This document shows, piece after piece, positions 16,131-23,969 of a stretch of 64,000 nt of DNA. Each line of letters starts with the position of its first letter. Positions within the stretch are counted from its first letter, which is position 1. The stretch covers positions 132,122,001-132,186,000 of the forward strand of contig CM069131.1 of assembly GCA_035221665.1 (NCBI GenBank). Reading direction: 5' to 3'. The notes beneath the pieces are model-generated. The model did not search any database. It worked only from the letters and a program-made list of their open reading frames with translations, and was not told the origin of the DNA. Source of the stretch: Okamejei kenojei. Lineage: Eukaryota. The position numbers and the translations under genes are program-made.

Positions 16131-17850
16131 TTCTAACATATGAAATATTATCAGCAGAATAGTCTCAATGTTCTAAGAATCCCAGATTAGGAAAATGACA
16201 AATAAGTACTAGTGTGAGGATTGGGCTGAAAATAAAATATGCTTAAATAGTTTATCTCAATGGGAACTTAAAAGGTAAAAAGTTGATTAAGCCAAAAATA
16301 TAAATTTTATAGCCAATTTTTGGAACCCGCGGAATATAAGCACATAGTAGGCGGGCAGAACATGCTCAGCCGCTGGTCTTCTTGTTCGCAGGATGCATGA
16401 GGTATTCAGAGGGCCCTGCTGGTCCCGAAGTGTCACTGCAACATTTGCTCTCTCTCAGGGATCCCAGTTTGGAAGATTGATCAGATCCTACACTGAACTG
16501 GCTGATCAGTAGAAACCAACAGCTGGATCCCTGAAATTGTTCCAGCACTCAGTACTCACAGGCAATCTATGCTTCCCAGGGTGTGTAATCCCTACTCCCT
16601 CATTTTCACCTCTGAATTGCAGTTGCGTTCCGATTTCATCATTGTACACAAATTTGCAAGCAAATCAATTTTCCTGGAACACCCCCCACTCCATCACCAA
16701 AGCTCTGGTGTTAGTGCAGCAGAACCCTAATTTTGAATTAAATGTGGGGTTTTTTTGTGTTTTTTTTTTTTTTTGCAACAGTTGTGTGGGTGCAGTTCAT
16801 GCCATAATGTAATGAAGGTCTGTCTGACCAAGGTATTAAACCATAATTTAATTCAGGTTAGAGCCTGAATGATCTGGGTAAAAATGGAGGTACGCGGGGT
16901 TAGACCCAAAAGGACAGCATTCCTCCTGTTTCCACCTGGAGAAGTAACTTGTTCTCTCAAAGTTATTTCTCCCAGAATTTCAGTGAGTTAATAAATGGAG
17001 CCACAGCAAAGAATAGTATTCTGAAGATGTTATTTTGCATTTGCCATAAACAATGTCACAAGGATACAGTTTCTCTGGAGATTACAATCAAATGTTTCAT
17101 CATCAGCACTGGCAATATTTCCATGAAAAGGGTTTAGCAAGGGTTATTACAGATATTTTAAGAATCCAAATAGATAAATAAAATTATACATCGGCTTTCA
17201 GCGTTTTTTGCTAGCTCCCACATTGTGCGTAACTTAAATTTGCACAAACATATATCATTGCTTTTAATTGTCAAAAATTAAAAAAGCCAGGCAAAATGAA
17301 TTAATAGAAAATAACTTTGCAGTAAAAAATACAGTAGCAGAAACATGATTCCCTTCTAATTCCATTATGTGACAGTTTCTTGTTTTGTCAGCATTTTCCG
17401 GGCGTTTTTCTCCTTTTCTGCCCATGAGGGTCTCAACCCAGATCAGATACAATCAGGTAAACAAGATTTTATGACAGTTTGTGCTGAGTCCTGTTCAACA
17501 CATTTCCCAGGCTCTCTGGCAGCATTTGAAGTAGTCATACAGTTAACACCATGTCCACGAGAACATCAGCAGAGAAAATGGAATCAATAATGTCCATAGA
17601 ATTGTCTACAAGTGGGAACAAATAAAATTAATGTCAATGTAACATAGAGATAATGGTCGTATAGGAGAGGAATGATTGTTAACAGTATGACCTGTTAAAA
17701 AATGAACATAGTAGGTGTATGTGGCCAGAACGTTCAGAAGCACAAACTAACACTGTGTCATCAATAATAAGTCTTTTTACATATGGAAAAAAAACCCAAT
17801 TATTTTGAGTTTCTTTAACATTCAAGTGACCTTGAAGTTTTTGAAACATT

Positions 17851-17856
17851 TTTAAT
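17851..17856 (-). promoter_or_regulatory. Candidate polyadenylation signal (ATTAAA) of the granzyme-like gene
   Basis: About 75 nt after the TAA stop; a GU/U-rich tract follows at ~17785-17800 on the minus strand. Confidence 0.4.
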
Positions 17857-17929
17857 ATATCAATTTCCTTCTAATTCATTTCACTGATAAACAAGTTACT
17901 TTATAAAAAGTGACAAACACATCTTCCTG

Positions 17930-18130
17930 TTAAATTTGTTCTGCTGGCTTACTAAAATTCACAACTCCAATTTTTTCCTTGATCCAGGAGAGATATTTGT
18001 CTGTTAACCGGATATATATGCCGGGTTTTTTTGAATTTCCACATTCCTTTCTGGCTGTAGAAACACCGACAACCTCCTTCTTCCAGCTCAATGTCTTTTT
18101 CTTGCACATTAATGGATCTCCCGCATCAAC
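17930..18130 (-). CDS. Granzyme-like exon 5 (VDAGDPLMC...KPGIYIRLTDKYLSWI, stop)
   Basis: Acceptor ctcttttttag at 18131-18141; TAA at 17932-17930. Confidence 0.9.
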   Translation of the reverse strand, partial: VDAGDPLMCKKKTLSWKKEVVGVSTARKECGNSKKPGIYIRLTDKYLSWIKEKIGVVNFSKPAEQI

Positions 18131-21100
18131 CTAAAAAAGAGTTTTAGAAATTATGCTTGAGTGAGCGGGTGTGTGGGGGGAGTGAGCGGGTGTGTGGGGA
18201 GAGTGAGCGGGTGTGTGGGGAGAGTGAGCGGGTGTGTGGGGAGAGTGAGCGGGCGTGGGGAGAGTGAGCAGGCGTGGGGAGCGCTTCTGCCAGCTCTGTC
18301 CCCGATTCTTGCAGCTCGCAGTGGGGAAGAAGGGCTGGGGAGAGAACCCGGCACAAATTGCCCACAGCCCTACAGCAGTCAGCAAATCCATCCCTATGTA
18401 TCATTACCATTTCTTTGAATTATATAATATTTATGATATCCATGTCAGACATTTGTATAAGGGTAGCATATATTTTCCTGTTATTTTGGCCATGTAATTT
18501 AATGTGTTTAACTTACCAAGCAGGAATCTTTCTTCCCCTTTTTATCAGTGGCGCATATCATATTGTCTGTTATAACTGGACTCCTGTTATAATACTTATT
18601 ACTATTACAGGTTTTCCGATCCAACACTGTTACTTCTGCTTCTTTCAAAACTTCAGAACGTGATTTATCCTTTGAATTGGTTTGTCCCCATCCGATGAGA
18701 CTGCACTTTAGTCCAGATTTGGGGTCCTTTGCTGAAGTTGGAAGTTGGAGGATTTCCTTACTTTTAATATTTGCAGCTTGTCCTAACTGCAATAAATAAG
18801 AAAAATATATCAGTTTCCATTTTCATGTCATGCTATGCTTGCAAGATTATAACATAGATGCACGTAGAAAAATATACAAATGTTAAAGTATATTTCTTGT
18901 TGCGATTACTTTATTAAAGTACAATGTTTAAAAGGTAGAAAGACCACCCAAATTAACAATGCCTTTAAATTTAGGGCCAAGGTGAGCCCAGGCCGTAAGT
19001 AAGTAGAGTATCAATTGCTAATCTCATCATAATTATATGAGGTGAACATAAATATGTTGGTTAATTAATGCATTTATCCATAATCTAAATTTCTCATCCG
19101 GCTGCCAGTGAGAATACCACAGGTTTGTAGTGTACAGGTTATTGAACAATAATCACCTCCAAAAGCATAATGTCATTGTCCAGTGCATTCTTAAATTCAG
19201 GATGTGGGAAAAAGTTTTTAATAGAAATTTTCTGTTCTGTCTTATCCTTCTTCTGTTGTGACTGAGGTCCAAGAATGACGATGGATCTCTTTTTTTTGAC
19301 CAGCCTGTAATTTTTGTAAAGTGATAAATTACTTGAAATAGCAATATTGGAAATAAAAACAACACAATACATGTAATGCTTTTACGAAAAGTTGACAGCA
19401 TTTTTCAAGGATGGATGGACCAGCTGAGATGCGGCATCTTGGTCAGCAGGAACGAGTTGGGACGAAGTGCCGGCTTTCATGCTGTATGACTCTATGAATC
19501 AGTCCAATTACCTTAATAGTCACGCAGCAGAGTGGGGATTTAATCTCAGAGCTAGTGGCCAGGAACTGTAAGCTGTAACACAAGCAAACTAAAAAAAATG
19601 TGACAAGAGCAACATAAAAAAGAAAGTGACTAAAATATATATATTAAAAAATTATTGCTTCAAATATTCAATCAACTTGTTCTATCATGGAATTAAATTT
19701 TTGTTCATCTGTATTTCAGACCATTCAATTACTTTGGTTCACTGCCAATATAAATGCTTAACAAAAATCTCAGTTCTGAAATTTTTGACTGACCAATATT
19801 TATCAGCTTTTAGGGTGGTTCATGAGATTTCCCTTATCCTTTATGTGATAATAACCCCCGCTGAATGATGTTGCTCATGTTAGGCTCACTCTATAATAGT
19901 CTAACTTGAGAAGAATACAAGCATCATTTAATCATGGCTCAATATTTAATAACTTCAGCCCAGGTTCATTCAGATGCATTGACAAATGCACACATTCCCA
20001 GGTCAGCATAACTTTCCTGTTGTGCAGCAGAGTATTAAATGTTCTGAAGAAGGGTGTCGATCTGAAATGCCACCTATCCATGTTCTCCAGAGATGCTGCC
20101 TGACCTGTTGAGTTACTCCAATACTTTATGTTGCCTCAAGTGATGTCTGTTGTTTTTAATCATTCAAGGGACATGCCAGTGCTGATGAGGCCTAAACTTA
20201 GCCCTCTTATTTTAAAGGCTAACTTCTCAGTAGCCAACTTTATTTTGATTTTTTATTTATTCACTATCTGTGGATATTGCTGAAAAGACCAGAATTCAAT
20301 GCCCATCCCTTAGAGATGAGAAGAAGGATGTAGTATTAGCCTCAATTAAAGGTAGCAATGAGCCACTTTCTCACACCATTGCAGTTTGTGGTTAAGATCC
20401 TCTTACAGTGCTGCTCCAGAGACAGTTCCAGGTTTTTATGCAAGAGGTGATGAAGGAATTACAATGCATTTCTAAGTAGGAATGCTATGTAGTTGGAGGG
20501 CAATGTGAGCAAGGTGGTGATCTTATTTTCACCAATCTTGGCCTGAGCAACACAATGTGGGGAAGCAGTTGGTGTTACTGCCTCGACTCGGGTTTAATCA
20601 TCATCTCTCGTGCTATCTGAGCGAAGTTTCAATGTAATAACTGTGACTGTAGGTTTCCCCCACGTGACTTGGTTTTCTCTCGCATCGAAAAAGAATCAAG
20701 AGGGTTTGATGGACATTGGTGAGAATTGCAGAGGTGCAGGGAAATGAGGACAAGGGAAATGGGAGCCAGCATGGAGCCAACAGCCAAACAATATCCACTG
20801 ATGGCGTCTGCAGCCTTCTTAAGGCAGCAATTGAGACTACAGTTAATTGTGGATTTCAGTAAGGCCATCCTTACTGAAAAACAAATTGCCTCACATTTTT
20901 CCTCACTGAGGTACAAGTGGTCAAATTATGACCTGATTAGGGTAGCATGATGTTTTCTACTAATAGCCTTTCTTCCCTTTCACCTGTTCTCTGCACTAGC
21001 AAACTATCCTGCTCCCAGCAATTCTAGTGTGTTCCTGTGGCTGAGCAGCTGGTTTGTGCAGAAGCTGTGAAATTAGTAAAATGGCCTTCAGCATTCACCA

Positions 21101-22371
21101 TCCTGCTGCCTGTGGACTTCTGCAACTTGAAACCACTCCAGCAAGCATCTAAATTTGTGAAATCGGACAGAAGCATTCTTTTTTGTGGCCGAGCGTGTGT
21201 TGCGCTGTACCAACTGCACCCAGTTAAGTGGGAGCTTTGACTGAGCAGAAAGCGGTAAAATCACAGTGGTGACATCAATTCAGGTCTGCACGCTGACTTA
21301 CTTTAGGATCTGCCTGCTGTGCATAGTGCTGATGGTCTTTGTACTGTTCAAAATGCTCTCGTCAATCTGACCCTCTGCCACATGTACTGTCCATCCTATT
21401 TTGAAATTCATACACATTTGAAGGGCTAAAAATTGAGCTAATTCTCCCATTTCCTTATTATGTATACATAACACTAAAAATGTTCAGCTTGTAGCCAGGT
21501 CAGTGCAGGACATTACTTTTATACTTTAAACTTAATTTTGTCTGTTAATTTATTTCAATTATTTCTCGTCATATTTGCTTTCAGAACTCACAGTTGAACA
21601 ACAATCCTATTGTTCAAATACCTTTCCACATACATTTAGCTGATCGTATTCATGTTGATCATCATGTTGGTCATTATGCCTGCTGCATTTTATCATTTTT
21701 TTGTGATAAATTGATACATTTTTCTCTGAACCTGAGAAAAATCAGCATTACCTTAAACTTTTTTTTGCCAGAGCTGTTTCTCATTTGATGTCTTTATCAA
21801 CATAATAATCAACATAATTGATGATTGTAGCAAGCAATTGTCCAGCATAACCTCACCGTACATATTGGTTAACTCTTATCCACCAAATACCCGTGTAATC
21901 ACGCATTACCATCTTTATTTTGGTAATGAAGTCATTTTAAAATGCAAGTTGAAAAGATGACCCCAGCTGCATATTTTGTATCATTATAACATGGTTTACT
22001 GAAACAAATTGGAAGCATCCCTCATTGAAGTGTAATAATGAAGGGTAAACTAGAAATGAATAAAATATCTTACTGTAGACAACTTGCTGCAGTCAGAACC
22101 CATTTTACATGGATCAAACTTCCTCCACATACATGCTTGTTATTAGCTTGGATGGACACCATGAAAGGTTTTGAATAAGGTTTAGCGTCATGACCCCCAA
22201 TGATTTCCATACAGTCATCTACAGAGGAAAAAATACACAACTATCATTAAGAGCACTTAGTTCAACAAACTTAGAAACCCACCTCCTTAAATACTTACAG
22301 CCTTGGCCAGCCAAGACAGTGGCCACTAAAGCAACAAGTGCTGCCTGAAGCATGCTGATCATTTTGTCCAT
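17930..22371 (-). CDS. Granzyme K/A-like serine protease homolog, catalytically inactive (His57Ser, Ser195Ala); 5 coding exons, 278 aa
   Basis: join(22371-22299,22218-22074,19304-19157,18786-18517,18130-17930) = 837 nt, no stops or frameshifts, all introns GT-AG, phases 1/2/0/0. Protein: MDKMISMLQAALVALVATVLAGQGYDCME-IIGGHDAKPYSKPFMVSIQANNKHVCGGSLIHVKWVLTAASCLQLVKKKRSIVILGPQSQQKKDKTEQKISIKNFFPHPEFKNALDNDIMLLELGQAANIKSKEILQLPTSAKDPKSGLKCSLIGWGQTNSKDKSRSEVLKEAEVTVLDRKTCNSNKYYNRSPVITDNMICATDKKGKKDSCLVDAGDPLMCKKKTLSWKKEVVGVSTARKECGNSKKPGIYIRLTDKYLSWIKEKIGVVNFSKPAEQI. Confidence 0.92.
18159..18281. repeat. G-rich minisatellite (gagtgagcgggtgtgtgggga) in intron 4
   Basis: Four 21-bp units and two ~19-bp units. 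Confidence 0.9.
18517..18786 (-). CDS. Granzyme-like exon 4 (LGQAA...CSLIGWG...MICAT...KDSCL)
   Basis: Within ORF 18508..18792; acceptor ttgcag, donor gtaagt; contains Asp189 (18526-18528). Confidence 0.92.
19157..19304 (-). CDS. Granzyme-like exon 3 (...FFPHPEF...DNDIMLLE)
   Basis: Within ORF 19139..19372; acceptor ttacag, donor gtgatt; catalytic Asp102 retained (19172-19174). Confidence 0.92.
22074..22218 (-). CDS. Granzyme-like exon 2 (DCME-IIGG...HVCGGSLI..KWVLTAASCL)
   Basis: Acceptor ttcctctgtag, donor gtaaga; codon 57 is AGT (Ser) at 22084-22082. Confidence 0.93.
22299..22371 (-). CDS. Granzyme-like exon 1 (signal peptide)
   Basis: Hydrophobic MDKMISMLQAALVALVATVLAGQG, phase-1 donor gtaagt, 80-nt intron 1; the actual start could be either downstream in-frame Met. 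Confidence 0.88.
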
Positions 22372-23969
22372 CTGCTGGTGTGAGAACAATGAGCTGCTCT
22401 TGTAGCATTTAGAGGAGGATGTGGTATTATGTACTTTTGGACTCATGTGACATCTTGTGTTCTTGTTTTGAAACACTTGTTACATTTTTCAGTGATAAAA
22501 TTTTAAGTCAGAAAAATGTGACTCTGAAAACAACATTGCACACAATCTTATTGGAAACTGGTAATAATTCAAAATTAGTAATGACTTACAAAGCTCTTGC
22601 TATCTAAGGTCCACACTATAAACGTAACAGCATAAATATTGTGTATGCCAAACTAGGTCGTGCCACAAATATATTTAGAATTTAATTCATCTGCTTCATT
22701 CTTAATTTCAAATATTGATTAAAGTTGGCTGAGATAAAAAATAATACTAATTAATGTTTTGCTGACCAGAAAATATAAGCAATTTTGTATTATATTACTG
22801 AGAAATATTCCAGCATCCATCAATGCCTTCATTCCTTAATGTATCCCACCTAGTATTTAGTGCTGATTTTGGTATTGTACTAGCACATGTAAACTAACAA
22901 AAGTGTTAAAAATAGCTATAAAAAGGAAAGAAAAAAAATATTGTTTTAAAATTGTAGCTTTTATCACAACCAGTTTTGTGAATGGATCTGTGCTTGAAAA
23001 ATTAACCATCTATTCTCTGTAGTGAGCATTTTTTTAACCGTTTTTCTTATTATTCTGACCAAAATTGATAATGTAGGAATTTTCCAAGCCAATAATTCTA
23101 AATTATTACTTGTTTCAATGCCTGGGGAAGGTAACCGTCCTTGTAGTAATGCAATAAATATTTAAAAATTGATGAGTCGCGAGGAGACGTAAGATAGCGG
23201 AGTCAGGGGATGTGGGGAGACGGCAGGAACGGGGTACTGATTGGGGATGATCAGCCATGATCACATTGAATGGCGATGCTGGCTCGAAGGGCCAAATGGC
23301 CTACTCCTGCACCTATTGTCTATTGTCTATAAAGTGAAATTGTAGGGATTGAATAGTGGTTTCCTGACTAGATTGCTTCCTTCTTAATACCATGGCAAAG
23401 GGAATGACTGAATGGCTGCAGATTATTTTATAGGAGGATGGTGGTGGGTTGGAAATGACAGTCCAAGTCAAAAATGAAATGGCACAAAGAAAATGTGTTA
23501 AGGATTTTCAGGCAGAGCATCAGGAGCATGGACGAAAAAGCAACTGATTTGTTCTTCTCTGAGAGACGCAAAGAACTGCAAATGTTGGAATCATGAGCAA
23601 AACACAAAGTGCTGGAGGAACTCAATGGGTCAGGCAGCATCTGTGGAGGGAATGGACAGATTACATTTCAGATCTCTATTTCAGACTGCAGGATAAATTG
23701 TAGGGATGGAATTATGGTTTCCTGACTGGAATGTTTCTATCCTGAAACTAGGGCAAAGGGTATGAATTCCATATACCAGGGCCGAGAGACCACTTCTTCC
23801 AATCTCTCTTCATTGGCAGTTCCTTTAGGTTGAAATAAAACCAGTTACGATGAAAGATCTTAGACTTTAAATATTAACTGGCCTCCCATTCGCTAAATGC
23901 TGCTTGACTGAAAGAGTTCTTCCTGCTTTTGTTTCAGATTCCAGTATCATTGTTTTTTTTTTCTTTTCT

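Follow-up and report, generated by a model that had tools for sequence, protein, structure and literature searches.

In a 64,000-nucleotide stretch of the Okamejei kenojei genome (the window, positions 132,122,001-132,186,000 of contig CM069131.1, to which all megabase positions below refer), we found a minus-strand gene of five exons at 17930-22371, here called Q, that encodes a granzyme of the A/K family lacking both the catalytic histidine (His57) and the catalytic serine (Ser195) of an active protease. Q is very probably a functional pseudo-enzyme, and, together with B, a neighbouring sister gene located outside the window, it makes up a real, ancient, and constrained pair of dead granzymes that had apparently gone unrecognised. 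On balance, we lean towards the reading that these two dedicated non-catalytic granzymes have been kept for some 420 million years as a natural separation of the family's binding-only role, pro-inflammatory or antimicrobial, from its protease role; they would be the sole and oldest counterpart of azurocidin to have arisen from the A/K family, and may work as a pair.

Structure of Q and Loss of Its Active Site

The open reading frame of Q comprises 837 nucleotides including the stop (278 amino acids) without any internal stop codon, and its four introns are all of the GT-AG type, with phases 1/2/0/0. Exon 1 (22371-22299) carries the start codon and a hydrophobic leader, a signal peptide as judged by inspection, and ends in a phase-1 donor; exon 2 (22218-22074) contains the ME dipeptide, the IIGG mature start, the Cys42-Cys58 pair, and a serine codon (AGT, 22084-22082) in the place of His57. 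The lysine-rich 60s and 70-80 loops and the retained Asp102 (GAC, 19174-19172) are encoded by exon 3 (19304-19157), and Cys136, Cys168, Cys182, Cys191, and Asp189 (GAT, 18528-18526) by exon 4 (18786-18517). The coding part of exon 5 (18130-17930) provides Val193 (18130-18128), Asp194, Ala195 (18124-18122), Asp197 (18118-18116), Thr214, Arg216, and Gly226, besides a basic stretch inserted near residue 204 and a C-terminal tail that bears an N-glycosylation sequon, before the stop at 17932-17930. The mature chain has 8 cysteines, 39 lysines, 6 arginines, and 24 acidic residues, with a computed isoelectric point of 9.6.

The catalytic triad at positions 57/102/195 therefore reads Ser-Asp-Ala instead of that of an active tryptase, and the S1 pocket is altered as well, given that Q has Arg216 (AGA, 18052-18050) instead of the glycine of the tryptase triplet Asp189/Gly216/Gly226, in addition to Thr214. 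A large residue at 216 shuts the S1 pocket in the trypsin fold. These changes are not sequencing errors because the motifs TAASC and VDAGDP recur in named skate proteins, nor are they the norm of the surrounding granzyme cluster, since 11 of its 14 exon-2 matches read TAAHC, the three exceptions being Q, a broken copy of it, and B. A sequence-only reading had described an intact five-exon gene with canonical splice sites and an 837-nucleotide frame, in which real substitutions rather than an indel error gave TAASC and VDAGDP while Asp102 was kept; the exon-intron reconstruction, the codons, and the skate proteins all agree with it. Its list of lost residues (His57Ser, Gly193Val, Ser195Ala, and Gly197Asp) was correct as far as it went, but it overlooked Arg216 and Thr214.

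Two repeats lie in the introns of Q, namely, a 21-base tandem repeat of 5.7 copies in intron 4 (18159-18276), just upstream of the exon-5 acceptor, and a fragment of a very high-copy repeat, with a match depth in the hundred thousands, in intron 2 (20040-20130).

Orthologs of Q and Its Sister Gene B in Cartilaginous Fishes

By means of protein searches and cluster look-ups, orthologs of Q were recovered from 8 skates and rays, from 11 sharks, and from the elephant shark, making 20 named species in all, each with an open frame. His57 is absent in 20 of 20, being replaced by Asn in 11, Ser in 7, and Thr in 2; Ser195 is likewise absent in 20 of 20 (Ala in 18, Gly in 1, and Pro in 1), and Asp102 is kept throughout. 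Exon 4 of Q shares 99% identity with an Amblyraja radiata protein, and Q groups with three skates, which makes the animal a skate and bears out the cartilaginous-fish origin proposed from the sequence. In these protein searches there was no ortholog of Q outside the cartilaginous fishes, and Q did not turn up for Narcine, Rhincodon, or Pristiophorus, which does not by itself show a loss. No further dead granzymes appeared among 13 new domains of at least 205 bits (50% representatives), all 13 of which have His57.

The rest of the active site varies by lineage. Only skates and rays have Arg216 and altered residues at 193 and 197; all 11 shark Q proteins have Asp189 and Gly193, and 9 of them, in the tree set, also have Gly216 and Gly226; the sawfish and stingray proteins read ITGG; and in the elephant shark IIGG is gone, with Asn189, Ser194, Pro195, and Glu226 in its protein. 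The S1 triplet 189/216/226 is thus Asp/Arg/Gly in skates and rays, Asp/Gly/Gly in sharks, and Asn/Gly/Glu in the elephant shark.

The sister gene B is the next gene downstream of Q, with an intact copy on the minus strand at 131,612,104-131,621,267 (Asn57, Asn102, Lys189, and Ala195) and the motifs TSVNC, RNNLAL, and GDAGGP in this genome. It has an acidic loop near 147 (net charge -4.2) where Q is neutral, and no PY motif follows its IIGG. In 22 species with B, both His57 and Asp102 are missing in 22 of 22, and Ser195 is present in 2.

In databases, these proteins appear either as “granzyme K-like” or with Q and B fused in models named “TMPRSS9-like” or “serine protease 53-like”. We rejected a natural Q-B fusion, given that the junctions vary by species, active pairs are fused in the same manner, Q and B lie about 50 kb apart, and contigs pass the Q stop into the 3′ untranslated region (UTR).

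Two side observations concern other shark granzymes. P0055, from Heterodontus francisci, has His57Ser with Ser195 kept and is nested among active paralogs, which reflects either an error in the sequence or a recent loss, the third of its kind. Seven shark granzymes with an intact triad (P0028, P0031, P0035, P0037, P0047, P0059, and P0087) do not have Cys191 and/or Cys220, an absence that is a trait of granzyme B and chymase.

Phylogeny and Age of the Catalytic Loss

Trees were built with FastTree on 101 domains, and further trees on 40 and 26 of these, with azurocidin sequences absent from all sets. Q and B formed one clade among the chondrichthyan A/K granzymes, with a support of 0.93 in FastTree, 96.2/97 with 40 sequences (WAG+G4), and 91/93 with 26 sequences under a mixture model. 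Each of the two clades holds an elephant-shark gene, with supports under WAG+G4 and the mixture model, respectively, of 99.7/100 and 100/99 for B and of 80/63 and 100/99 for Q. The joint grouping of Q and B points to a probable single loss of catalysis, followed by the duplication into the two genes, all before the split of chimaeras and elasmobranchs, dated at about 420 million years ago (PMC6238376); alternatively, the two genes may have lost catalysis separately. The orthologs and trees revealed both the age of the loss and the dead sister B, which the sequence-only reading had overlooked.

The trees place Q among the chondrichthyan A/K granzymes at the level of the family, and they do not pair it with either GZMK or GZMA of mammals as a one-to-one ortholog. 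The best solved structure for Q in a PDB search was pro-granzyme K (198 bits), followed by granzyme A (173 bits), and azurocidin was absent from the best 60 full-length PDB matches. A special likeness of exon 2 to azurocidin was also discarded, as granzymes M and K and proteinase 3 all outscored heparin-binding protein (44.6 bits). The assignment to the granzyme A/K lineage made from the sequence is thus sustained by structure match, locus, tree, five exons, dipeptide plus IIGG, and Cys191-Cys220, and the proposed origin independent of azurocidin by the A/K locus, the clade, and the PDB ranking.

Selection and Transcription

The ratio of nonsynonymous to synonymous substitution rates (dN/dS) was estimated with a custom GY94-type codon model applied to 221 codons of 7 paralogs from this genome, the tree being fixed, giving 0.29 on the Q branch, 0.33 on the B branch, and 0.33 elsewhere. 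Fixing dN/dS at 1 cost 2ΔlnL of 12.2 for Q (p ~0.0005) and 10.2 for B. Q is under purifying selection, and neutrality is rejected. Compared with three active ortholog groups, the identity of Q was higher in 24 of 31 species pairs, tied in 1, and lower in 6, these pairs being interdependent and two of them using another member of the same genus or order; B was mostly less conserved than the active groups.

Spliced contigs span all four predicted introns, covering exons 1-2-3-4 in run X2, exons 3-4 in X3, and exons 4-5 in X1; these contigs are RNA-like and come from related organisms, the RNA status of the runs being a guess made by the tool. The related-species contigs show at least 6 exonic differences, 4 synonymous and 2 not, too few to weigh. 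At the 5′ end, an RNA-like contig over 22299-22399 extends the 5′ UTR to at least 22399. Downstream of the gene, a probable 3′ UTR of at least 600 bases past the stop (17300-17929, minus strand) is covered by RNA-like contigs at 17300-17773, 17317-17645, and 17851-18030 (X2 and X3). The last of them runs unspliced through the Q stop and through a cryptic donor at 17952; as the sole contig there, it led us to reject the alternative C-terminus of two database skate models that use this donor.

Open frames, a dN/dS well below 1, and spliced contigs all speak against a pseudogene, and the possibility of a young one, raised with the original proposal, was largely refuted by the value of 0.29, the frames of 20 species, and the splicing. 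The transcript check proposed with it was answered in part, with splicing seen across all four introns, but in runs that carry no tissue label rather than in the named organs.

About 50 nucleotides above the ATG there is a proximal promoter element on the minus strand (22411-22425), a 15-base word common to the B promoter and occurring once in the window, which we take to include a RUNX site overlapping an ETS-like site. The comparison was made between Q and B, exon 1 calls being unreliable for most other genes of the cluster, and the element would be a weak hint of leukocyte expression of Q.

What the Dead Granzymes May Do

The net charge of the Q core is +22 (18 to 27, n=15); the active granzymes of chondrichthyans average +14 (-1 to 24, n=34), mammalian granzyme K +15 (n=4), and B +15 (n=13), in a comparison of related sequences, 8 of which fell into no class. 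Three loops (60s, 70-80, and 186) and the insertion near 204 hold the excess charge of Q. The S1 pocket and the activation switch do not appear to be the conserved function, since they were broken separately in rays and in the elephant shark, and the conserved role is more likely on the surface. In the accessible portions of the literature, human granzyme K binds lipopolysaccharide (LPS), granzymes K and A enhance LPS responses without catalysis (PMC5149580), and the active site of granzyme A is dispensable for restricting intracellular mycobacteria (PMC8368726).

By analogy, we tentatively propose, with somewhat less than even confidence, that Q keeps a binding-only, pro-inflammatory function of the kind described for human granzymes K and A. 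The history behind it stands on firmer ground: very probably, a granzyme copy of a stem cartilaginous fish lost His57 and Ser195 and then duplicated into Q, with Asp102 kept, and B, with Asp102 lost too, both of them being retained. As for the mechanism, Q would be synthesised with a signal peptide, held in the granules of leukocytes as its neighbours are, and released alongside them; its lysine-rich surface loops would bind polyanions, for example LPS, heparan sulphate, or the proteoglycan of the granules, and Q would prime phagocytes. A catalysis-independent activity of granzymes K and A would thus have been split off into a dedicated gene.

Several points weigh against this proposal and against the wider history of the pair. 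The support for the role of Q is at the level of sequence. Active granzymes are also cationic, one of them at +24, and B, at +15, is no more basic than they are; therefore, charge does not explain the Q-B pair. The presence of Asp189 and Gly193 in 11 shark Q proteins, and of Gly216 and Gly226 in 9, fits a binding pocket still used in sharks. As to the history, the elephant-shark Q placement reaches 80/63 under WAG+G4, the Q+B monophyly is unstarred under the mixture model, and the dN/dS averages over a very long branch with a custom model for 7 paralogs and 221 codons. The RNA status of X1-X3 is a guess, and their contigs derive from related organisms.

Two other functions appear unlikely to us, and to a similar degree. 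Q could be a direct analogue of azurocidin, acting from the granules of granulocytes to kill Gram-negative bacteria and to attract monocytes. Its net charge is the highest among the groups compared, but the Cys42-Cys58 segment, which we assume to correspond to the bactericidal peptide of azurocidin, is not richer in basic residues (+1.4 in Q vs. +1.9 in active paralogs), and the basic residues of Q are overwhelmingly lysines rather than arginines. In the available parts of PMC4646688 and PMC13337447, the A/K locus is the sole hematopoietic protease locus found in cartilaginous fish and could thus supply myeloid granule proteins; against this, granzyme-K-like transcripts, with the paralog not distinguished, mark a natural killer cell cluster in nurse shark spleen according to the accessible part of PMC10529500.

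It is similarly improbable that Q, perhaps together with B, regulates the active granzymes, either as a decoy for serpins or substrates or as a scaffold or cofactor like the non-catalytic serine protease homologs of insects. Shark Q proteins do retain the Asp189/Gly216/Gly226 pocket and Gly193, Q adjoins B here and in fused database models of nine other species, and B has its acidic loop where Q is neutral; however, the pocket and the Ile16-Asp194 switch were blocked or lost separately in rays, skates, and the elephant shark, and the fused models of active pairs mean that fusion is no sign of partnership. More doubtful still is a housekeeping or non-immune role, such as granule proteoglycan packing or secretion in skin, gut, or reproductive tract: a strong positive charge and a signal peptide suit any polyanion-packing role, but Q remains in the granzyme cluster and has the RUNX/ETS-like proximal element, a weak leukocyte hint. 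Finally, we give hardly any credence to Q being a decaying pseudogene, an assembly error, or a protease with unusual chemistry, for which one could invoke a second block copy riddled with frameshifts and the Ser195 of B in 2 of 22 species, since the frame is open in 20 species under constraint and with spliced contigs, Ala, Gly, or Pro at 195 provides no nucleophile, position 57 holds Asn, Ser, or Thr depending on the species, and the broken copy has the indel pattern of unpolished long reads.

Genomic Neighbourhood

Exon searches of the genome placed the granzyme cluster at 131.39-132.14 Mb, between a Cys-type glutathione peroxidase gene (GPX) at 131.298 Mb and ESM1 at 132.187 Mb, whose first coding exon (132,186,700-132,187,000) lies just past the end of the window, head to head with Q. 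Within the cluster, no gene is closer to ESM1 than Q. In humans the gene order is ESM1-GZMK-GZMA-CDC20B-GPX8, so that the position of Q at the ESM1 end is presumably the place of GZMK in mammals, and the flanks identify the cluster as a granzyme A/K locus. The open frames in the rest of the window are all repeat-like, as judged by inspection of their translations. On the plus strand, at 131.51-132.01 Mb, there are at least 8 close granzyme copies in inverted orientation, with His57 intact where visible, and those at 131.826 and 131.866 Mb have exon-4 frameshifts.

A block of about 70 kb with B and Q is present twice, at 131,604,000-131,673,000 and 132,075,000-132,146,000, with 92-98% identity, the intact Q being in the window copy and the intact B in the other. 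Because gaps are more numerous than mismatches between the copies, the block is probably a false duplication from unpolished reads, and the broken Q copy, with about 13 single-base indels and 2 substitutions across its coding exons, has the same pattern. Reciprocal pseudogene formation after a true duplication was dropped as unproven.

Comparison with Known Systems

Both members of this pair had probably already been met in the elephant shark without being recognised. Akula et al. (2015; PMC4646688) reported, in the portion available, five A/K genes of the elephant shark, two of them with the odd triplets NGE and SGG, taken as a sign of altered specificity, the latter maybe a chymase, and XP_007890379 and XP_007890378 are in the supplement. 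In these two proteins, the orthologs of Q and B, respectively, residues 189/216/226 are NGE and SGG and the triad is absent; from their sequences we infer that they correspond to the published triplets. The accessible text of that paper makes no mention of a missing triad in the NGE and SGG proteins, inactive shark granzymes are not described in the available parts of PMC13337447, PMC7914634, PMC6795676, and PMC10529500, and the term “granzyme” is absent from the supplements of PMC10529500 and PMC3964593. Dead shark granzymes were not described anywhere in the literature searched, which mostly excluded subscription journals. Pseudo-proteases are already known as a kind, and Q and B are not a new category; what they offer is a correction of the record, as 2 of the 5 granzymes counted in the elephant shark probably lack enzymatic activity, and a caution that some of the “granzyme K-like” markers in single-cell data from sharks may be Q or B. 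Whether granzymes A and K act as killers, pro-inflammatory proteases, or non-catalytic binders is disputed in the accessible parts of PMC4646688 and PMC5149580, and the existence of two natural dead paralogs, conserved no less tightly than the active ones, speaks for an old and selectable non-catalytic function, besides providing ready-made proteins for finding it.

Q resembles granzymes K and A in its flanks of ESM1 and GPX, its five exons with phases 1/2/0/0, ME-IIGG, eight cysteines, Asp189, and best structure match. It is like granzyme K in particular by having 8 cysteines without an extra dimer cysteine, following the rule given in the available part of PMC4646688. It differs from both in the absence of His57 and Ser195, in skates also in Val193, Asp197, and Arg216, and in being more basic, with basic residues inserted near 204 and a tail at the C-terminus.

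Azurocidin (AZU1, CAP37, or heparin-binding protein) has Ser at 57. Like it, Q is a single-domain, cationic, and predicted non-catalytic relative of granule proteases, with His57 and Ser195 apparently lost from an intact fold. The convergence at His57Ser suggested from the sequence holds for the Ser57 of skates and rays, but the 11 sharks carry Asn57 and it is not family-wide. In descent the two are different: azurocidin belongs to the elastase/met-ase locus and to placental mammals alone (PMC4646688, in the portion available), whereas Q derives from the locus and clade of granzymes A/K, is far older, and has a dead sister, and, judged by these features, Q is not an azurocidin ortholog. The clip-domain serine protease homologs of arthropods are also alike as non-catalytic immune proteins with a trypsin fold, but they have a clip domain, unlike Q, belong to an unrelated lineage, and act as cofactors of cascades.

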